Shown here piece after piece: positions 4,306 through 64,000 of a stretch of DNA of 64,000 nucleotides; the stretch's first letter is position 1; each line of letters begins with the position of its first letter. Origin of the DNA: Candidatus Micrarchaeota archaeon (GTDB taxonomy: Archaea; Micrarchaeota; Micrarchaeia; Norongarragalinales; SBBD01); assembly GCA_018819225.1 (NCBI GenBank), contig JAHJQN010000005.1:35286-99285 (forward strand), given 5' to 3'. The notes below the pieces were generated by a model. It was given only the letters and a program-made list of their open reading frames with translations, ran no database searches and was not told the DNA's origin. The position numbers were made by a program, and so were the translations under genes.

Positions 4306-5766
4306 TCATCCTTTGACGACGCCGAGAGGCACCAATCGAGCCACGGGTTTGCTGATTCCCGCCATGTGCACGGCTTTAACGACTTCGTCCACGTCCTTGT
4401 ACGCGCCGCCCGCCTCCTCCGCCAGTGAACGCCAGGAAGTGGCGCGAACCGCCTGCCCTTTTTCCTCCATTTCTTTTTGCAATTGTTCTCCGCGGAAGCT
4501 TCGCAATGCTTGCTTACGGGACATGACCCGCCCGGCTCCATGACACGAACTCCCAAAACTTTCTTTCGCACCAGGAAGGCCGACTAAAACGTAGGAAGCG
4601 GTATTCATGCTTCCGGGAATGATCACGGGTTGGCCGACGTTCCGGTAAGCAGTGGGAATTTCTTTGCGTCCTTTCCAGAACGCACGGGTCGCCCCCTTGC
4701 GGTGGATGCACACTTCCTGCATTTTTCCGTTGACTTCGTGTTCCTCGAATTTGGCGATGTTGTGGCAAACGTCGTACACGAGCTCCATGCCCAAGGACTC
4801 CCACGACTGCTTGAAGACGGATGCAAAGGTTTCGCGGGCCCAATGCGCCATGTAATGGCGATTACAGAATGCATAGTTGATGGCCGCGCGCATTTGTTTC
4901 AAATAATTTTGGGCTTCCGGAGAGGAAACGGGCGCGCAGCATAACTCGGGATCCGGCAAAGAAATGCCGTACTTTTTAGCGGCTTGCAACATGACGCGCA
5001 AGTTGTCGTCGCAAACTTGGTGCCCGAAACCCCGCGAACCCGAGTGAATCATCATGGTAATCTGTCCTTCATGCGTCAAGCCGAACGCCTTCGCGGTTTC
5101 CGCATCATAGATGCGGTCGATTTTCTGCACTTCCGCGAAGTGGTTTCCGCTGCCGAGCGTACCGAACTGGGGTTTGCCGCGCTTGCGCGCCTTATCGGAA
5201 AGCAAGGAAAAATCCGCGCCTTCAAACACGCCGTTTTCCTCGCAATGCTCGGCATCCGCGGGCACCCCAAAACCCTGTTCGATGGGATACTGAACACCGG
5301 CCGTCACCGCCTCCTCAAGTTCTTGTTCCGTTAAGCGGACGCGTCCTTTCGTGCCGACTCCGCACGGAATGTTTTGAAAAAGCCCGTTCACGATTTCCTT
5401 GAGCCTGGGCTTCACATCCTCTTCAGAAAGACTCGTGCGCAGCAAACGCACGCCGCAATTAATGTCGTAACCCACGCCGCCCGGCGAAATCACGCCGTCC
5501 TCCATCGAAAACGCAGCCACGCCTCCAATGGGAAATCCGTATCCTTCATGGCCGTCGGGCATGACTTGAGCGGCCTCTAAAATTCCGGGCAGCTTCGCCA
5601 CATTGGATGCTTGCCAGAGCGTGCGATCCGAATGCAATTTGTTCAGCATTTGAGGCGTGGAATAAACGCGCACGGGAACGCGCATGCCGTCCACTGCAGG
5701 CGCTTCGTATACTCCGTTTCGAATGAGTTTCAAATCCATGAGGTATATCCACCGGTCGCCCATCAT
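4306..5766 (-). CDS. rtcB: RNA-splicing ligase RtcB
   Basis: GSGNHF, HNIAKFEEH, CHGAGR motifs; 486 aa; no intein insertion visible. Confidence 0.9.
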   Translation of the reverse strand: MMGDRWIYLMDLKLIRNGVYEAPAVDGMRVPVRVYSTPQMLNKLHSDRTLWQASNVAKLPGILEAAQVMPDGHEGYGFPIGGVAAFSMEDGVISPGGVGYDINCGVRLLRTSLSEEDVKPRLKEIVNGLFQNIPCGVGTKGRVRLTEQELEEAVTAGVQYPIEQGFGVPADAEHCEENGVFEGADFSLLSDKARKRGKPQFGTLGSGNHFAEVQKIDRIYDAETAKAFGLTHEGQITMMIHSGSRGFGHQVCDDNLRVMLQAAKKYGISLPDPELCCAPVSSPEAQNYLKQMRAAINYAFCNRHYMAHWARETFASVFKQSWESLGMELVYDVCHNIAKFEEHEVNGKMQEVCIHRKGATRAFWKGRKEIPTAYRNVGQPVIIPGSMNTASYVLVGLPGAKESFGSSCHGAGRVMSRKQALRSFRGEQLQKEMEEKGQAVRATSWRSLAEEAGGAYKDVDEVVKAVHMAGISKPVARLVPLGVVKG

Positions 5767-8572: not shown

Positions 8573-9249
8573 TACAAGCAAGCGCGTTTTAGGAAAATGG
8601 CTTAAATATCGTTTCCAGAACGTGAGATCTGAAACACCCATATTTTTATGGATTTCGAAGCCCATTAAGGCAAATGACGGGTAAAACGTTAAATACTTTG
8701 AAATCAAGAATAGGTTGGGAAGAGAAAACGCAAGAAGGGTTTCGCCTCTTTTAATAAGAGGTGATGAAGATGACGATGGAAGAACTAGTGTTACTTCTAG
8801 TCCTCTTGCTCGCCGCCGTGGTCCTGATTCCGAGATTCTTCGAAAAACAAGGGTCCAGCTCGGCTTTCAAAAAAGGTGAATTACCGCGCTTCTAGTGTTC
8901 GCGCTATAAAAGGGATTGCATGGAAGGAACATTGTTTTTGGGACTGCTCGTCGCCGGATGGATTATTAGCAGCTCGGACTTTGGAGACGCTGCAGTCATA
9001 TAACCGCCCATCGGATGAAAAGGAGCGTTAGTTGCAGCATGACCGGGACCAATAAAACATCACCGCGCATCCGCGGAGAATAGTTGAATATTAGTTACCA
9101 TATATTAGTAGTAACAATCAAGGTAGGAGTATGATCTTTGAACTGATGGCCGTTGGATTCTTGGGCGTTATTCTATACTCCCCGGTCTGACCGATGACCA
9201 CGCCGGAAAAGAGAGTCCGCTCATGAAAAGCGAACTCCCGCGATACTAA

Positions 9250-9280
9250 CGACCTTTTTCAAACAAGGTCGATAAAAAAA
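9250..9280 (-). repeat. tRNA 3'-trailer hairpin motif, copy 1
   Basis: cgacctttttcaaacaaggtcgataaaaaaa; related to the sites at 11085-11112 and 52556-52586. Confidence 0.4.
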
Positions 9281-9300
9281 TCTAGGAGCATTAAAAAAAG

Positions 9301-9420
9301 TGGGGCCGCCGAGATTTGAACTCGGATCGCTGCCACTCCGGCCTTCACGCGCCTTGCAGCTTTTGGCAGAGCGAGGGAAGGTCCCCAAGGCAGTAGGATG
9401 CCAGGTTACCCCACGGCCCC
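9301..9420 (-). tRNA. tRNA-Pro(GGG) with a canonical anticodon-loop intron of about 46 nt
   Basis: Minus strand reads GGGGCCG...CTGCC-TTGGGG-[intron]-GGCAG...CGAGTTCAAATCTCG-GCGGCCCC-A; acceptor, anticodon and T stems all pair. Confidence 0.8.
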
Positions 9421-9432
9421 CCCAAAAAAAAC

Positions 9433-9648
9433 TTAGAAGCGCGGATAATGAATGATTTCGTCCACAAGGTCTTCCTGCGAAAGCAGCATTCGGCGGCAGC
9501 AATAACGATCAAAACCAAACCGGTCCATTGTCTTGCCCGCATCCGCTTCCTTACCCAGTTCCTTGGCACGCTCCAAATCCTCGCGGTACTCGTAATACTT
9601 GTCTGCCACGACCTTACCGCACGTAAAACAACGAACCGGACACATCAT
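9433..9648 (-). CDS. rpoN: DNA-directed RNA polymerase subunit N (Rpb10)
   Basis: MMCPVRCFTCGKVV N-terminus characteristic of RpoN. Confidence 0.9.
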   Translation of the reverse strand: MMCPVRCFTCGKVVADKYYEYREDLERAKELGKEADAGKTMDRFGFDRYCCRRMLLSQEDLVDEIIHYPRF

Positions 9649-9839
9649 CGTTTCTTTCGCCTCTTTTTAAGAAAATCCTTCAACCCCTTTTCTTCAACAT
9701 TCAATGGAACACCTCTCCAAAGACATTCATCGCACTCATAAACGCCCATGTGTTCGACGACGCCTGGTACAGCCACGTCGCTGAACGAAGGCGTGCGGAG
9801 TTTCGTACTCCAACATTCCGGGCAGACATTGATTCTCAT
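9645..9839 (-). CDS. Small zinc-ribbon protein
   Basis: CPEC...CDEC Cys4 motif; 64 aa; lies between rps9 and rpoN. Confidence 0.45.
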   Translation of the reverse strand: MRINVCPECWSTKLRTPSFSDVAVPGVVEHMGVYECDECLWRGVPLNVEEKGLKDFLKKRRKKR

Positions 9840-9842
9840 GGT

Positions 9843-10298
9843 TTAACGGTACGACTTTGTAAATCTCGCGCGCGCTTTCGGTCCCTTGAACTTTTTGGGT
9901 TCCACGCGTCGCGGGTCCTCGACGAGCAGTGACCGATCGTAAGTCATGAACTGCTCTCGCAACGAATCATTCTTCGAGTATTGAACGATTGCGCGGGCTA
10001 CCGCGGTTCGGGCGGCTTGCGCCTGACCTGAAAATCCTCCGCCGCGCACGTTCACATGCACGTCGAAATCAGGATGGTCAATAAACTGCAACGGCTCGCT
10101 GACGACCTCACGCATGAACGGCGAATCGTGGGCGGTCAGCAACAATCCATTGATGTAAATTTTTCCGCTTCCGGGTTGAATGGATGCACGCGCAATGGCT
10201 TCCTTTCGCTTGCCGCGCGTCACCAGGGACTTCTTCTTTTTTCGTTTCTTTTTCTCTTCATCGGTCATAATCGTTCCATCCTCTAAATGCGTGTGCAC
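9843..10298 (-). CDS. rps9: 30S ribosomal protein S9 (uS9)
   Basis: GGGFSGQAQAAR motif and basic C-terminal ...KSYR. Confidence 0.9.
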   Translation of the reverse strand: MHTHLEDGTIMTDEEKKKRKKKKSLVTRGKRKEAIARASIQPGSGKIYINGLLLTAHDSPFMREVVSEPLQFIDHPDFDVHVNVRGGGFSGQAQAARTAVARAIVQYSKNDSLREQFMTYDRSLLVEDPRRVEPKKFKGPKARARFTKSYR

Positions 10299-10687
10299 AA
10301 TTCCTCCAAAGAAATAAATCGACAGGTTAGGGAATCCGATACGGCCTTAAATCGTTTCGCCTTTCCCGCATACTCCGAAGGCGCGCCACGGTAAGCCATG
10401 ACGCGCTTGAGGGCCTGCGTTCCACGTTCGGAATGCTTGGGGAGCATGCCCCTCACGATTCGCTTGAACAAATAGTCTTCACGCTTCGGCCACTTCGTGC
10501 TCTGATCCGGGTTGGCCTTGTTTTGAATGCGACGGCGCTTCATGTAGCGTTCAACGATCGCCTTGGGATCACCGGATAAAACGGCTTTCTCAATATGAAT
10601 GATGATCACGTCTTCGCCTTCCAGCGCGGCCTTGGCCGCAGTGGCCGCCAAGCGTCCGACAATGGCTTGAGAAGCATCAATAATCAT
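10283..10687 (-). CDS. rpl13: 50S ribosomal protein L13 (uL13)
   Basis: IIDASQAIVGRLA N-terminus typical of archaeal L13. Confidence 0.9.
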   Translation of the reverse strand: MIIDASQAIVGRLAATAAKAALEGEDVIIIHIEKAVLSGDPKAIVERYMKRRRIQNKANPDQSTKWPKREDYLFKRIVRGMLPKHSERGTQALKRVMAYRGAPSEYAGKAKRFKAVSDSLTCRFISLEELCTRI

Positions 10688-11047
10688 TTATATCACGATG
10701 ATAACGCGGGATCCCTTCGGATCTTTTTTTACGAGTTCGGGAATGGACATAACCGTACAGGACGCTTTCCGCAGTTTTTCTGCTGCGGGTTTCGCGATTT
10801 GATACGCGGCGACCGTGAATTTTTTCCGCAGGGTTCCATTGCCCAATACTTTTCCGGGAACCAATAATATTTTGTCATCATGCGCAAGAAGGTTCAGTTT
10901 GACGAGGTTGACTTCCACGCGGCGACGGCGCGGTCGGTTGAGTAATTCCACGGCGCGGTACCAGATGCCCGCCTTTTGCGCACTAGACGCTTTCGTCAAC
11001 AAGCGTATCAACCGCCTGAGTTCCGGAATTTCCGTACCGCGTTTTAC
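10688..11047 (-). CDS. rpl18e: 50S ribosomal protein L18e (eL18)
   Basis: Start taken at the internal Met (MVKRGTEIPELRRLI...) because the upstream in-frame stretch overlaps a tRNA-flank repeat; about 119 aa. Confidence 0.8.
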   Translation of the reverse strand, partial: VKRGTEIPELRRLIRLLTKASSAQKAGIWYRAVELLNRPRRRRVEVNLVKLNLLAHDDKILLVPGKVLGNGTLRKKFTVAAYQIAKPAAEKLRKASCTVMSIPELVKKDPKGSRVIIVI

Positions 11048-11084
11048 CATTTTATTCACTTTTACAAATATTATTTTTGAATGC

Positions 11085-11112
11085 GACTTTTTGATCGACC
11101 TTTTTTGAAAAA
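11085..11112 (+). repeat. tRNA 3'-trailer hairpin motif, copy 2
   Basis: gactttttgatcgaccttttttgaaaaa; a 24-nt identity with 52558-52581. Confidence 0.4.
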
Positions 11113-11161
11113 CATCATTTTCTTTTGGTGAAGCTTTTCTTTTCGAAAGAAAAGGTTCGTA

Positions 11162-11281
11162 TGCAGGGGCGGGGATTTTCATCGTTTTTCTCGAACGGAA
11201 AAAAACGGTTTTGAACCCCGGCATCCTCTACGGAACAGAGACCTCAACCCTGCGCATTTGACCAGACTCTGCCACCCCTGC
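11162..11281 (-). tRNA. tRNA-Leu(GAG) with a non-canonical intron of about 34 nt in the T-loop
   Basis: Minus strand: GCAGGGG-TG-GCA-GAGTCTGGTCAAA-TGC-G-CAGGG-TTGAGGT-CTCTG-long V arm-CGGGG-TTCAAA[intron]T-CCCCG-CCCCTGC-A; all stems pair once the insertion in the T-loop is removed. Confidence 0.65.
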
Positions 11282-11284
11282 ATC

Positions 11285-11557
11285 TCAGGTTATCATGATG
11301 CGTTGGATCGCGTCTTCGTCGGACATGCCCTCGAACTGAACCGCTTTCTTGCGGGTTTGAGCGCCTCGGATGAGACGCACGCGCGCTCCCGATCGCTTCT
11401 CCAGCTCGTGAAGAAGTTCCCGGTTGGCGCGTTCGTTGGTGGGCGGGCTTCGAAGCCAGACCTTCAAACCATTTTCGAAGGCGGCGACGGAAAACCGCTT
11501 GGCATTGGGCACGACGCGAATGTTCATGATCATTTCCTTTCGATAAATTTTCACCAA
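11285..11557 (-). CDS. DUF167/YggU (UPF0235) family protein
   Basis: 90 aa; NIRVVPNAKR ... ANRELLHELEK pattern typical of DUF167. Confidence 0.65.
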   Translation of the reverse strand: MVKIYRKEMIMNIRVVPNAKRFSVAAFENGLKVWLRSPPTNERANRELLHELEKRSGARVRLIRGAQTRKKAVQFEGMSDEDAIQRIMIT

Positions 11558-11575
11558 TTAATATTCTCAATTATT

Positions 11576-12232
11576 TTATTTGAGTTCTTTGACGGCTTCC
11601 AATGCGTCGAGTTTGGCTTGCAATAACGTGAGGGCGCGTTTGAGGTGATCCGCGGCACGCACATTGTTGTAACTTTCCACGAAGAAAATGTACTCGTCCT
11701 CCCGGAATTCTTCCGGAATGCCTTTCGAGTCGCTCTTATCCACTTCCGCCAATTCTTTGACGCTGCGTTTGAGGGGGACGAGGCTGTAGGACGCCAGCAC
11801 GCTCTGAAATTTGGCATGCTGTTTTCCCTTGCCTTTAATGGCGAATCCCTCAAAGCGCAAGCGCTGGTCGGCCGCCAATTTGATGATCGGAATGTTTTCG
11901 TTGAACACGCGAATTTTTTCGTCGTTGCTGCGCATATCCCGCGAGTACACCATGCACGGGCCTTCCGCGTTCATGGAAAACGTGACTTCAGCGTCGTCGG
12001 CAACGGATTCCTCCCAAGTCAGGGGAACGAGTCCGATGCGATTCGCCAAGTATTCGTTGAACATGGCGGAATTGTTTTCATAGAAATCCACGCGATCAAT
12101 CGCATAGCTCTCGAGCTCGGATAGCATCGTGCGACGCAATGCGTTCATCAAGCCGACGCGGGTCTTCTTGACGTGAAGCTGCAGCTTAAAACCATCCTCT
12201 TTCAATACGTCCAACTGCATTTTCATATCCAC
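11576..12232 (-). CDS. rpoD: DNA-directed RNA polymerase subunit D (Rpb3)
   Basis: GLMNALRRTMLSE motif; 218 aa, shorter than typical with no Fe-S insert. Confidence 0.85.
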   Translation of the reverse strand: MDMKMQLDVLKEDGFKLQLHVKKTRVGLMNALRRTMLSELESYAIDRVDFYENNSAMFNEYLANRIGLVPLTWEESVADDAEVTFSMNAEGPCMVYSRDMRSNDEKIRVFNENIPIIKLAADQRLRFEGFAIKGKGKQHAKFQSVLASYSLVPLKRSVKELAEVDKSDSKGIPEEFREDEYIFFVESYNNVRAADHLKRALTLLQAKLDALEAVKELK

Positions 12233-12241
12233 CCATGCGTT

Positions 12242-12793
12242 TTAAACTCGGCGACCCCTCTTTCCGCCGCGTCGTTTCGTGCTGTCGGTTGGAACCGGAG
12301 TCACGTCTTCAATTTTTCCGATGCGTAGCCCGCTTCGCGCCAACGCTCGAATCGCGGCTTGGGCACCGCTTCCCGGCGTCTTGGTTCGGTGTCCGCCGGG
12401 GGCGCGAACGCGAATATTTATGCCCACGAGTCCCCGTTCCTTGGCTTTCTCGGCGCACTTGAATGAGGCTTGCATCGCCGCGTACGGAGAACCTTCTTCG
12501 CGGTCGTTCTTGACGACCATTCCTCCGCTCGCCACGGCAATGGTTTCGGCCCCGCTTAAGTCCGTGACCGTGATAATCGTGTCGTTCTTGCTGCTGAAAA
12601 TGTGGGCAACGCCCCACCGGCCTTCTTTCTGAATGTACTTGCGATCGAATCGGTCGCGAGAACTACCTGAACGACCGGAAAAGCTTCGGCTCGATGCACT
12701 GGCGGGTCGCGTCGGCAGCGACGCACGCGAAGGGGCCGCGGTTTCCGGTTTAATGGGTTCTTTGATTGAATCGTCTTCGGCCATGAGGTTCAC
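12242..12793 (-). CDS. rps11: 30S ribosomal protein S11 (uS11)
   Basis: Conserved uS11 core ([21 protein letters not shown]...) with an N-terminal extension. Confidence 0.9.
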
Positions 12794-13350
12794 GCTGCAG
12801 TCTTTTCAAGTTGCTTCACGTCCGAAATGTCGGGAGTGAGAGGTTCGTCTTCTGGTTTCGGGACCGGTTCCACGTTGATTTTGTGTCCGTGCCAATTGAT
12901 TTCATCTTCCTCCACGTATTTCACGAGGTAGGAAGGAGAAGAAATGCGCTTTCCTTTAACGGTCAAATGCCCGTGCGAAATGAATTGACGGCTTTGTTTG
13001 ATGGTTTTCGCGAAATGTTTCTTGTGCGCAATGGTTTGCAATCTCCGATCGAGCACGTCTCGAACCGTCAATGAAAGCACGTCATCGAGCGTGGGGGTTT
13101 CTTTGCGAATCAGGAAGCCCTTCATGCGTTTGATCAACTGTTCTTTTCGGCGCTCCACATCCTTACCGCGCGCGGAAAGCAATCGGCGGGCTTCACGGCG
13201 GATCTTTCGAAGTAACGTCTGCATTTTCCACAATTCTTTTGCGTTCTTTAAACCGTATTCCTCGCGCAGTTTGCTCTCGCTCTCGATTCGCTGCTTGTCC
13301 CACAGCCTACGCGGCTTCTCATATTGTTTTCGCAAGCGCTTGGCTCCCAT
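12790..13350 (-). CDS. rps4: 30S ribosomal protein S4 (uS4)
   Basis: uS4 N-terminal basic region and S4 RNA-binding domain. Confidence 0.9.
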
Positions 13351-13355
13351 TCAAC

Positions 13356-13940
13356 TCACTTCTTTTCCTTCTTCTCTTCGCCACCCGCTGCGGCAGCCGC
13401 CTTTTGTTCCTTAATGGATTTGCGCAGGACGCCGACGGTCATTCCGCTTCGGCCGGTGGTCCGCGTGTGCTGGCCGCGCACTTTTTGGCCGAGGGAGTGT
13501 CTCCAGCCTCTCCACGAACGCATGTCCTTTTCTTTCTGCACATCGGTTCGGACGGCAAACACTAAATCGTTCATGAGCACGTGTTGGGCCCTGCCGGTTT
13601 CGGCCGATTTGCTTCGGTTCAACGAGAACTCGGGAATCCCGTGCTGGGAAGGCATTCTCAACATTTCATCAATTTTATCGATCTGTTCGTCCGTCAAGTC
13701 CCCGCAACGCATTTGGAGCGGTAACTTCAATTCGTTTCGGATGACGCGTTCCATGGCATAAGCGAGATTGGATCCCACGCCGCGTACGCGCAATAGTCCT
13801 CGGTACAACAGCATGTGGCCGTCAACGTCCTTTCCGGCGATACGAATGACGCCTCGAAAATTCTCGTCCTCTGCCTTTTCGGGCTTCGCTTGCACGGAAG
13901 GCGCGCGCGGGCCTTTTTTCTTAAATTCTTTCTTCGCCAT
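13356..13940 (-). CDS. rps13: 30S ribosomal protein S13 (uS13)
   Basis: RIAGKDVDG ... GVGSNLA uS13 signature. Confidence 0.9.
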   Translation of the reverse strand: MAKKEFKKKGPRAPSVQAKPEKAEDENFRGVIRIAGKDVDGHMLLYRGLLRVRGVGSNLAYAMERVIRNELKLPLQMRCGDLTDEQIDKIDEMLRMPSQHGIPEFSLNRSKSAETGRAQHVLMNDLVFAVRTDVQKEKDMRSWRGWRHSLGQKVRGQHTRTTGRSGMTVGVLRKSIKEQKAAAAAGGEEKKEKK

Positions 13941-13958
13941 ACTTCATCAAAACATCAA

Positions 13959-14178
13959 GCGCCGGGACTGGGATTTACGCCCCTCTCTCTATTGGCGCGA
14001 TCAACGCAATGGCTTTCTTCAGGGAATATACCATTCCCGGAAACAGCGTTTGAGGCAACCTCTTGAGTCAGAGGATTCGAACCCAGGAGTCCTTGCGGAC
14101 ACCAGCTCTCCCACGTTTTCTGCCTGCTCGGGAGAAATACGTTTCCAGGCTGGCGCTTTAACCACTCAGCCATCCCGG
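13959..14178 (-). tRNA. tRNA-Ser(GGA) with two introns: canonical anticodon-loop (about 35 nt) and T-arm (about 100 nt)
   Basis: 5' part GCCGGGA-TG-GCT-GAGTGGTTAA-AGC-G-CCAGC-CTGGAA[intron 1, 14107-14141]A-GCTGG-long V arm-CTGGG-TTCGAATCC; the complementary CCCAG and the acceptor strand TCCCGGC-G lie about 100 nt downstream at 13959-13971 [intron 2, about 13970-14071]. Confidence 0.6.
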
Positions 14179-14232
14179 CACGTGAACTAACATTCTTCCA
14201 ACCTACCTTTATAAGGTTATCGACTCCCGGGC

Positions 14233-14676
14233 ATGAAAAAGCGATTTAAAGCCTGCGTCCGTTATTTTGACGTGGACCTCAAGGAAAAGGATATCCGGCT
14301 GAAAAAGCTGTGGAAAAAGTTGAACGACGCCCTATTAGTCGTGGAAGGAAAGCATGACGTAGCGGCTTTGAGGGAAGTGGGCGTGTACGCACCCGTGATC
14401 ACCGCGAATGGAAAACCCGAGCGCATCGTCCAAAAAGTGATTGCGCAGGCGCGAGGTAAGCCCGTCGTATTATTGTTTGATTACGATCGGGAAGGCACGC
14501 GCAAGACGCTGTTTTACAACGAATTATTTTTCGCGGAGGACTGCAACGCGGACCTGCAGCCGCACAAGCAGTTGAAACAACTGCTGCCGTTAAACACGAT
14601 CGAGGATTTGCCGACGGCGTACTACGACGTGATGGAAGAGATTGCTCTCGAGAAACGCGTCCGAAAAAACGTTTAG
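14233..14676 (+). CDS. Toprim-domain protein
   Basis: LVVEGKHDVAAL and LFDYDREG Toprim motifs; 147 aa. Confidence 0.65.
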   Translation: MKKRFKACVRYFDVDLKEKDIRLKKLWKKLNDALLVVEGKHDVAALREVGVYAPVITANGKPERIVQKVIAQARGKPVVLLFDYDREGTRKTLFYNELFFAEDCNADLQPHKQLKQLLPLNTIEDLPTAYYDVMEEIALEKRVRKNV

Positions 14677-27640: not shown

Positions 27641-28078
27641 TTAAATGTCGAGAAGGATGCGAATGCGCCAGCGTCCGTTGGCTTGATGTTCGACGAGGGT
27701 TTGGTGGTGCGTCACCGCTTTCACGTGCATTTCTCCTTTTTCCGGCGAATACGGTTCGCCGCGGGCCTCGCCAACGAGACGAAAACCGTGTTCCGTTTTC
27801 TGGAATTGTCGGACGTGAAAGCTCTTGAAAAACAGTTCGGAGGAATCGCTCTCGGATAAGACATCCGACAGAACGAAATTAGTGAGTTCTTCCAGCGATT
27901 CGGCTTCCGCCCGCACCTCGAAACGATGGGATTCCTGCAAATCGTCGACGTGAGCGATCGTGGAAAACAAGGCGAGCGCGGCATGAGAAAGCGTTTCCTC
28001 GTACGTGGAACCGAACGCCTCGAACAGGACATCCGCCGTATGATCCAAAAAACGGTATTTATCTCCGAGGACCAGCAT
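27641..28078 (-). CDS. Archease
   Basis: YRFLDHTADV motif; start taken at the internal Met (MLVLGDKY), giving 146 aa; the upstream 140 codons of the ORF look non-coding. Confidence 0.8.
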   Translation of the reverse strand: MLVLGDKYRFLDHTADVLFEAFGSTYEETLSHAALALFSTIAHVDDLQESHRFEVRAEAESLEELTNFVLSDVLSESDSSELFFKSFHVRQFQKTEHGFRLVGEARGEPYSPEKGEMHVKAVTHHQTLVEHQANGRWRIRILLDI

Positions 28079-28132
28079 TTCCGAACACCATACCCATACG
28101 CTATAATAACTGCAAGGAACTAAAGCATTAAA

Positions 28133-28513
28133 ATGGTGTCTTCGAAAGGCGCTGCATACGAAAGGCAGCTCAAAAAAATGTTGGAAGGGAAAGGCTTTTT
28201 CGTGATTCGATCCGCAGGAAGCGGCGTGGACTCGACGTCGCCTGACTTGCTCGCGCTTTCTTCCGCGAAACGAATGGCGATCGAGTGCAAGGCCCGGAAT
28301 TCCGGGTACGTTTGGATTGAAGCCACTCGCATGCGGCGCATGAACGCCTTCGAGGAAAAAACCGCGATTCCGTACTATGTTGCGTGGAAGGTGGCGCGGG
28401 AGGAATGGCGGTTCTTTCCGCTGATCGCCCTCCGAGAAACGGCGAAAGCCTTCGTGATAGAGGAAAAGGACTTGCACAGCGGACTTTCTCTCGAGCAATT
28501 ACTGAACCGCTAA
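28133..28513 (+). CDS. hjc: Holliday junction resolvase Hjc
   Basis: GAAYERQLKKMLEGKGFFVIRSAGSG ... IECKAR, a restriction-endonuclease-fold motif typical of Hjc. Confidence 0.8.
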   Translation: MVSSKGAAYERQLKKMLEGKGFFVIRSAGSGVDSTSPDLLALSSAKRMAIECKARNSGYVWIEATRMRRMNAFEEKTAIPYYVAWKVAREEWRFFPLIALRETAKAFVIEEKDLHSGLSLEQLLNR

Positions 28514-62518: not shown

Positions 62519-63061
62519 TGCTGCGGTTCAATTGGACTCAACGCCGGGAAACTCACCAGGAGAGACAGCAGAATGAAGCTCAGGCTAAAGACCTTAGCTG
62601 ACAAGCTGAGAGGTGTTGCATGGCCAGCGTCAGTTCGTGCCGTGAGGTGTCAAGTTAAGTCTTGCAACGAACGAGATCTTCATCCACAGTTGCCAGTTTC
62701 GCGGTAACGCGGAGCGCACTCTGTGGAAACTGCCTGCGTTAAGTAGGAGGAAGGAGAAGGCGACGCTAGGTCTGTATGGCCCGAATCTCCTGGGCCACAC
62801 GTGGCATACAATGGCGGAGACAATGGGTTCCGACGCCGAAAGGCGAAGGTAATCTCCGAAACTCCGTCTAAGTCCGGATTGGGGGCTGAAACTCGTCCCC
62901 ATGAAGCTGGAATCCCTAGTAATCGCGTGTCATCATCGCGCGGTGAATATGTCCCCGCTCCTTGCACACACCGCCCGTCAAGTCAACCAAGCGAGGCTTT
63001 AGTGAGGCTTGGTCTTCGGATCAAGTCGAGCTAGAACTTTGTAAGGTGGATTAAGTCGTAA

Positions 63062-63830
63062 GAACGTTGCGACCTCGGATCTGTGAGGATTTGAGAAAAA
63101 ATCTGCTATATGCTGGAAACCCCGAGCATCTCAGGCTACCATCGGAAACGACGCTTCGGAATGAATATCATTCTCGAAGAAATTCAGTTGGTGAAAATGT
63201 TTTGAGTGCGGGCAATCAGCAGGGAAGTCGGCGCGAAAGCGCTTGACCCCTCAGAGACTACACGCAGACTTCTATAGTGCAAGAGAACATGAAGGCATAT
63301 CTCCTTGGCGCGCTACACGATGGCTCCAATCACGGTAACACGTACCGAATCGTCCAAAAAGAAGAAGAATACGTCCGCTGGATTGCGGATGAACTTCATC
63401 AAATGGGCATTTCGGCATGGGTTTATCGGGAAGGAGCTGAACGACATTTATTCGTCGTCGAGTTCTCGAAAAGTCGGTTATCGGAAATCAAGATCAATAG
63501 TCTTGAAGAGAAAACTGAATACATTCGAGGATACTTCGATGCCGAAGGTAGCGTACCATTGAAATCGGGAGCCAGAATGTACATTTATTTCTGCCAAAAA
63601 GACCGAAAGGATCTGGAAGAAGTAAAAACATTCTTGGAAGAACTTGGAATCGTTTGTGGAAAAACCCACAATCCAACGTTCAAAGAACCTGATTATTGGA
63701 GATTCTTCATTGGATGTAAATCCTACAAAGCATTTGCATCTAAAATTGGTTCTCGCCATCCTCGAAAGAGGAAAGTACTCGAGAAGATGATATAGTCCAT
63801 GCCGCGCAGCGATGCGTGGAAGAACATGAA
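63062..63830 (+). mobile_element. 16S rRNA intron near the 3' end (after AAGTCGTAA), carrying a homing endonuclease ORF
   Basis: The 16S consensus AAGTCGTAACAAGGTAGCCGTAGGGGAACC is restored when 63062-63830 is removed. Confidence 0.8.
63277..63795 (+). CDS. LAGLIDADG-family homing endonuclease (double-motif, monomeric type)
   Basis: YLLGALHDGS (motif 1) and IRGYFDAEGS (motif 2) roughly 95 aa apart; 172 aa. Confidence 0.85.
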   Translation: MQENMKAYLLGALHDGSNHGNTYRIVQKEEEYVRWIADELHQMGISAWVYREGAERHLFVVEFSKSRLSEIKINSLEEKTEYIRGYFDAEGSVPLKSGARMYIYFCQKDRKDLEEVKTFLEELGIVCGKTHNPTFKEPDYWRFFIGCKSYKAFASKIGSRHPRKRKVLEKMI

Positions 63831-63969
63831 CAAGGTAGCCGTAGGGGAACCTGCGGCTAGATCACCTCAAAAATCAATAAGAACTAAAAGGTGATTTCAA
63901 AGCAAGGAAGTCAATTAAGTCAATTTCCTTTTTTGGAAACAATGAGGTCCGCGTCTTTATTTTTCTTAA

Positions 63970-64000
63970 GGGCTCGTGGCGCAGTGGTAGCGCGCCTGCT
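63970..64000 (+). tRNA. 5' part of a spacer tRNA (probably tRNA-Ala), truncated by the window end
   Basis: GGGCTCG-TG-GCGC-AGTGGTA-GCGC-G-CCTGC...; in the position of the archaeal 16S-23S spacer tRNA-Ala; anticodon not reached. Confidence 0.5.

Follow-up and report, generated by a model that had tools for sequence, protein, structure and literature searches.

A predicted BHB intron at position 59/60 of a tRNA-Leu(GAG) gene in Micrarchaeota

Introduction

Introns in the T-loop of archaeal tRNA genes have been described in ARMAN-2 (Candidatus Micrarchaeum acidiphilum), where 56% of tRNA genes are disrupted (Fujishima et al., 2011; PMC3239211). In that genome, tRNA-Cys(GCA) carries a 13-nt intron at position 59/60 with a relaxed hBH fold, and tRNA-Pro(GGG) carries introns at 53/54 and 59/60 with strict BHB folds (PMC3239211). 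The epsilon2 EndA of ARMAN-2 cut the tRNA-Cys 59/60 substrate in vitro, and non-canonical sites are efficiently cleaved only by broad-specificity enzymes of the (alpha-beta)2 or epsilon2 type (PMC3239211). Position 59/60 is among the published non-canonical intron sites of archaea, and exon joining is served by RtcB together with its activator, Archease (PMC4090602). In Thermoproteales and other Crenarchaeota, protein-spliced BHB introns occupy many positions, including 59/60, several can lie in one gene, and there is evidence of recent gain and loss (Sugahara, 2008; Fujishima, 2010; PMC4090602).

Here we analyze a 64-kb stretch of DNA (the window) in which a tRNA-Leu(GAG) gene is interrupted by 34 nt in its T-loop, and we conclude that the insert is very probably a spliced BHB intron at position 59/60 within a functional tRNA of an ultrasmall archaeon of the Micrarchaeota (DPANN). 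The locus resembles those of ARMAN-2 in its micrarchaeal host, in its site and in the use of the T-stem as the outer helix, and its strict hBHBh’ fold is like that of the ARMAN-2 tRNA-Pro introns. It differs in that the host gene is a class II tRNA-Leu(GAG) and the intron is unrelated, with 34 nt instead of the 13 nt found in tRNA-Cys and with both bulges present where the tRNA-Cys fold is a relaxed hBH. As in Crenarchaeota, a gene with more than one intron occurs in the window, tRNA-Ser(GGA), and the introns of close relatives carry signs of recent turnover. Crenarchaeal hosts, however, are hyperthermophiles with an (alpha-beta)2 EndA, and their introns are often near-identical copies in different tRNAs, which points to transposition, whereas the tRNA-Leu intron described here has no detectable copy. 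Finally, the architecture is identical to that of the canonical 37/38 archaeal intron, in that the first four loop nucleotides pair toward the intron's 3′ end and the enzymes are presumably shared; what differs is the arm, here the T-arm and not the anticodon arm.

Results

Genomic context and host

The window encodes an archaeal SSU rRNA, and its RpoD matches a protein of Candidatus Micrarchaeota archaeon (KJ765_04150) with 100% identity. On the minus strand, the genes of interest are ordered tRNA-Ser(GGA), S13, S4, S11, RpoD, DUF167, tRNA-Leu(GAG), L18e, L13, S9, RpoN, tRNA-Pro(GGG), which bears out the placement of the interrupted gene between the DUF167 gene and rpl18e in the initial annotation. 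The immediate upstream neighbor is:

11285-11557, minus strand: DUF167 (YggU-like) gene, with its stop codon 3 nt before tRNA-Leu(GAG)

DUF167 is inserted between rpoD and tRNA-Leu both here and in the closest relative (5706-5945 in L081; 1168-1407 in L082). That its stop codon lies only 3 nt (window) or 14 nt (L081) ahead of tRNA-Leu suggests co-transcription. We found no obvious TATA-like promoter upstream of tRNA-Leu(GAG) and, as the gene begins 3 nt past the DUF167 stop, we presume that it is transcribed by read-through. Directly downstream of tRNA-Leu and before L18e, positions 11134-11154 (minus strand) hold an 8-bp inverted repeat, CUUUUCUU-UCGA-AAGAAAAG, with a T-rich tract, which could be a terminator or a processing hairpin. 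The same repeat is the source of an Rfam match to RUF1 at 11047-11223, which we rejected as an AT-rich chance match (25 bits against a gathering score of 70).

Two further observations concern the rRNA locus. A group I-like intron at about 63050-63836 (plus strand; Rfam Intron_gpI, 48.3 bits against a gathering score of 50, E = 3e-9) interrupts the 16S rRNA close to the 3′ end, and inside the intron lies a LAGLIDADG_3 homing-endonuclease ORF (63277-63795, E = 3.5e-15). The 16S exon sequence reads AAGTCGTAA … CAAGGTAGCCGTAGGGGAACCTGCGGCTAGATCACCTC, resuming at about 63837, and the site resembles the SSU/1498 site of Micrarchaeota group I introns (PMC6125680). By eye, the last letters of the window (63970-64000, plus strand; GGGCTCGTGGCGCAGTGGTAGCGCGCCTGCT) resemble the 5′ portion of a tRNA-Ala from the 16S-23S spacer that is truncated where the window stops.

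An interrupted class II tRNA-Leu(GAG) gene

The gene and its exons are laid out as follows:

11281..11162, minus strand: tRNA-Leu(GAG), whole gene including the intron; G1 is 11281, the discriminator A73 is 11162, and no CCA is encoded
11210..11281, minus strand: exon 1, positions 1-59, 72 nt; acceptor 5′ strand, D-arm, anticodon arm, long variable arm, T-stem 5′ strand and T-loop 54-59 (TTCAAA)
11162..11175, minus strand: exon 2, positions 60-73, 14 nt; U60, T-stem 3′ strand CCCCG, acceptor 3′ strand CCCCTGC and A73

The acceptor stem is GCAGGGG/CCCCTGC, followed by U8 and a D-arm with G18G19; the anticodon stem CAGGG/CTCTG closes the loop UUGAGGU, giving the anticodon GAG, and the variable arm is long. 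The T-stem pairs CGGGG (11220-11216) with CCCCG (11174-11170), and the T-loop is interrupted between positions 59 and 60, reading TTCAAA, then 34 nt, then T. Read from the sequence together with the orthologue alignment described below, all of the class II tRNA-Leu features are present: the long variable arm, A73, the Leu anticodon, U8, A14, G18G19, U33, G53-C61 and the T-loop UUCRAAU. Of these, A73 and the variable arm serve as identity elements for Leu.

In its unspliced form the gene gave no tRNA match with ARAGORN or Rfam across the whole window, nor with Rfam on 8700-14400 at gathering and E-value thresholds. When the insert was deleted in silico, the resulting 86-nt class II tRNA was called by ARAGORN as tRNA-Leu(gag). 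The cloverleaf read on the minus strand and this call agree with the identity and anticodon proposed in the initial annotation, and the 34-nt T-loop insert that it placed at 59/60 was recovered at 11209..11176. Three overlapping ORFs that it had regarded as spurious were likewise found, at 10688-11224 (minus strand), 11244-11570 (minus strand) and 11258-11626 (plus strand). Because both exons are colinear on one strand, 34 nt apart, a split or permuted tRNA gene was ruled out.

The insert forms a strict BHB fold at its junctions

We searched each strand for strict BHB geometry, defined as an outer helix, a 4-nt central-helix strand, a 3-nt bulge cut after its second nucleotide, and an inner helix. 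At the tRNA-Leu(GAG) junctions, where the initial annotation had proposed looking for a BHB-like fold, this search returned a strict hBHBh’ with one mismatch at the first inner-helix pair. Its elements are:

11176..11209, minus strand: BHB intron, 34 nt, position 59/60, ACCGTTTTTTTCCGTTCGAGAAAAACGATGAAAA = ACCGUUUUUUUCCGUUCGAGAAAAACGAUGAAAA; identified by strict-geometry BHB match, fold and shuffle control
11212..11215, minus strand: BHB central helix 5′ strand, T-loop 54-57 (UUCA), followed by the 5′ bulge A58 A59 ↓ A (11211-11209); predicted cleavage 11210/11209
11178..11181, minus strand: BHB central helix 3′ strand, UGAA inside the intron, followed by the 3′ bulge A A ↓ U60 (11177-11175); predicted cleavage 11176/11175
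11207-11198 / 11192-11183, minus strand: 10-bp intron hairpin, with a 5-nt loop at 11197-11193

The outer helix (h) is the 5-bp T-stem, and the central helix (H) is UUCA/UGAA with 4/4 pairs, flanked by 3-nt bulges that read AA↓A and AA↓U (the arrow marks the predicted cut). The inner helix (h’) is the 10-bp intron hairpin, which follows a single C.A mismatch at the first pair, so that 3 of the first 4 h’ pairs are formed. For the segment comprising the T-arm and intron, the fold containing the BHB lies 0.4 kcal/mol above the MFE, and the fold of the entire precursor has a z of -2.9. Among shuffled introns, only 0.014% of 100,000 trials matched both a 4/4 central helix and at least 6/7 inner-helix pairs. 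When each of the 45,666 geometric BHB candidates in the window was spliced and run through ARAGORN, a junction-spanning tRNA emerged at two loci only, namely tRNA-Leu(GAG) and a tRNA-Pro(GGG) with a canonical intron.

The repeat of AAA and AAAA at the junctions makes placements from 56/57 through 59/60 indistinguishable by sequence, and the 59/60 register rests on BHB geometry. The same product could thus arise by cleavage at 56/57, 57/58 or 58/59, all of which give an identical mature sequence. Splice-aware alignment places its gap at 56/57 by default, and some related tRNA-Leu introns have their best BHB register at 58/59 (L005, L006, L015, L018, L020, L039, L042) or at 56/57 (L009, L065, L071, L079). 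Only at 59/60, however, does the present intron combine a 4/4 central helix and two 3-nt bulges with an outer helix made of all 5 bp of the T-stem; one nucleotide away, the runner-up candidate has H = 3 and h = 4 and would yield an altered product. The 59/60 register also fits the TGAA-AA↓T consensus of 31 introns described below, and the cleavage rule is validated by its finding the canonical 37/38 introns of the window’s tRNA-Pro(GGG) and tRNA-Ser(GGA). We therefore consider another register very unlikely and retain 59/60 as the predicted site.

The 10-bp hairpin is stable and would fold by itself, as might be expected if the insert were kept in the mature RNA as an extra arm that expands the T-loop, or if it were a self-splicing or other element. 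A retained insert would, however, break the T54-A58 pair and the T-loop/D-loop elbow, both of which are required in all elongator tRNAs. At 34 nt the insert is far below group I/II size and matches no Rfam family at E <= 10, on which grounds a self-splicing group I/II intron was rejected, and the exact spacing of BHB bulges and helices would be left unexplained. We regard such readings as barely credible next to removal of the insert as a BHB intron. A C/D-box sRNA inside the intron was also rejected, by eye, as the insert is too short and has no UGAUGA/CUGA pair.

Conservation points to a functional gene

We compared the gene with the rpoD region in 80 Micrarchaeota genome loci, to which we added two contigs from the closest relative by RpoD and three from metagenomes that contain the same 32-nt exon word. 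In most of the fetched loci tRNA-Leu(GAG) lies downstream of rpoD, revealing a conserved syntenic position. The exons are identical at 83/86 positions to those of the nearest relatives, whose RpoD is only 61-68% identical, and the three differences are U16C and a compensatory change of T-stem pair 50:64 from G-C to U-A. The spliced tRNA was aligned to 23 orthologues, of which 21 lack introns naturally and the other two had theirs removed in silico. The T-arm aligned without gaps, which were confined to the variable arm, and RNAalifold returned a class II cloverleaf with compensatory changes in 13/24 pairs, including the T-stem.

In 15 confident window genes, 35% of the Leu codons are CUY, indicating that a CUY-reading tRNA-Leu is needed, and no other tRNA-Leu was found within the window by ARAGORN or by the combined BHB and ARAGORN scan. 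A metagenome scan with the 32-nt exon pattern picked up three relatives that are more distant, whereas the window allele did not occur a second time.

These data bear on whether the locus is instead a disrupted pseudogene, in which the 34 nt would be a scar that is never removed and tRNA-Leu(GAG) would be supplied by another gene. Such a locus might well go uncalled by standard tRNA finders and Rfam, as this one does. The insert nonetheless has precise BHB geometry (p ~1e-4 from the shuffles), and the conservation of both exons, the compensatory T-stem change, the syntenic slot and the CUY usage make a pseudogene unlikely. The absence of a second tRNA-Leu from the window and the recurrence of the same intron design in other tRNA genes of the lineage (31 introns, below) also argue against it. 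Nor does the insert look like a repeat or mobile element, as blastn-short found no further copies of it in the window or the 85 loci. Taken together, we judge a pseudogene very unlikely and a functional, intron-bearing gene the better reading.

Position 59/60 is a common intron site in Micrarchaeota

The initial annotation had described T-loop introns as rare. This does not hold for Micrarchaeota: 59/60 introns of ARMAN-2 were published in 2011 (PMC3239211), and across the fetched Micrarchaeota loci and the window we found 31 distinct examples of 18 to 204 nt. The T-loop intron of tRNA-Leu(GAG) is thus an ordinary new example of an already documented kind. The hosts include tRNA-Leu(GAG), Ser(GGA), Pro(AGG), Ala(GGC) and Gly(UCC), among others.

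The 31 introns share a common design, in which the 5′ strand of the T-stem is followed by TTCR AA↓N and the intron ends in TGAA AA↓T before the 3′ strand of the T-stem. At any given central-helix position 90-100% of the 31 are paired, and the 3′ bulge is AAU in 19/31. Their inner helices are made by unrelated sequences, and the observed pairing was reached by 0/2000 partner permutations. The tRNA-Leu intron of the window is an exact fit to this consensus.

Two other tRNA genes in the window carry introns:

14179..13960, minus strand: tRNA-Ser(GGA) with two introns, 2.7 kb from tRNA-Leu; canonical 37/38 intron of 35 nt (14142..14108) and 59/60 intron of 102 nt (14075..13974)
9301-9420, minus strand: tRNA-Pro(GGG) with a canonical 37/38 intron of 47 nt (9382..9336); strict BHB with H = 4, h = 5 and h’ = 4

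The 59/60 intron of tRNA-Ser(GGA) forms a BHB with 3/4 central pairs (TTCG/CGUA), a 5-bp T-stem and the bulges AA↓U and AA↓U. This gene was called neither by ARAGORN nor by Rfam at the gathering threshold, where it left a sub-threshold tRNA match of 20.4 bits, and tRNA-Pro(GGG) was called by ARAGORN only with the intron option on.

Intron configurations differ among close relatives

Orthologous tRNA-Leu(GAG) genes with exons at least 96% identical have at least four intron configurations. The window gene has the 59/60 intron only. The L081 and L082 genes have only a D-loop insert, of 57 nt (L081 gene 5960-6102); those of L002 and L084 have a D-loop insert and a 35-nt variable-arm intron with strict BHB geometry (L002 gene 5934-6110); and those of L085 and L083 have a D-loop insert and a 104-nt 59/60 intron unrelated to that of the window. 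Among more distant loci there are T-loop introns that fit best at 58/59 or 56/57. The differing positions indicate repeated gain and loss.

Strict BHB geometry was not found in the D-loop inserts of the relatives, which presumably have relaxed motifs, and their exact position is taken from the alignment. The D-loop and variable-arm introns of the relatives are clearly homologous to one another. As a test for transposition, the window intron was compared with the relatives’ D-loop, variable-arm and T-loop introns, and homology to them was rejected, as nothing significant emerged beyond A-runs (best p = 0.008, an A-rich 14-mer). It is an even call whether the 59/60 intron was gained recently and in this lineage only, with an ancestral D-loop intron being lost alongside. 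[quoted passage not shown]

Candidate processing enzymes and a proposed splicing route

The enzymes for exon joining are represented in the window by:

4306..5766, minus strand: RtcB tRNA-splicing ligase, 486 aa; full-length match to Pfam PF01139, E = 1.6e-173; the enzyme expected to join the exons
27641..28498, minus strand: Archease-domain protein; Pfam PF01951, E = 2.4e-30; the domain covers residues 148-285 of the mechanical ORF

At its N-terminus the Archease ORF carries about 147 further residues that match no Pfam family and may reflect an over-extended start, with the true start further downstream, or a fused domain. In the 64-kb window, EndA was not found by Pfam scans of 30 ORFs (29 of the 78 called ORFs and one shorter), nor by the weak tests of a catalytic-motif regex and tblastn with an M. 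jannaschii EndA query.

We infer cleavage and ligation in vivo, as well as the type of EndA, along the following lines. Once transcribed by read-through, the gene's RNA would be processed by RNase P. Within the precursor, CGGGG/CCCCG of the T-stem would serve as the outer helix and U54 U55 C56 A57 would pair with UGAA near the 3′ end of the intron. EndA, presumably a broad-specificity enzyme in this lineage, such as the epsilon2 type, would cut following the second nucleotide of either bulge. RtcB, with the help of Archease, would then join the 72-nt and 14-nt exons and restore the T-loop UUCAAAU.

Discussion

The T-arm at 59/60 can be read as the exact geometric counterpart of the anticodon arm at 37/38: both arms have 5 bp in the stem and 7 nt in the loop, and in both the intron follows the sixth of these 7 nt. 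This likeness may account for 59/60 as a recurrent insertion site.

Standard finders and Rfam miss tRNA-Leu(GAG) and tRNA-Ser(GGA), and also tRNA-Pro(GGG) when the intron option is off, such that an annotation produced by these programs would seem to have no CUY-reading tRNA-Leu, and spurious ORFs would be annotated across the tRNA-Leu locus. From the predicted splicing of this gene we expect an EndA of broad specificity, either epsilon2 or a comparable type, to be present in the genome. Across Micrarchaeota, 59/60 is a recurrent and stereotyped intron site, and these genes provide material for studying how archaeal tRNA introns come and go.
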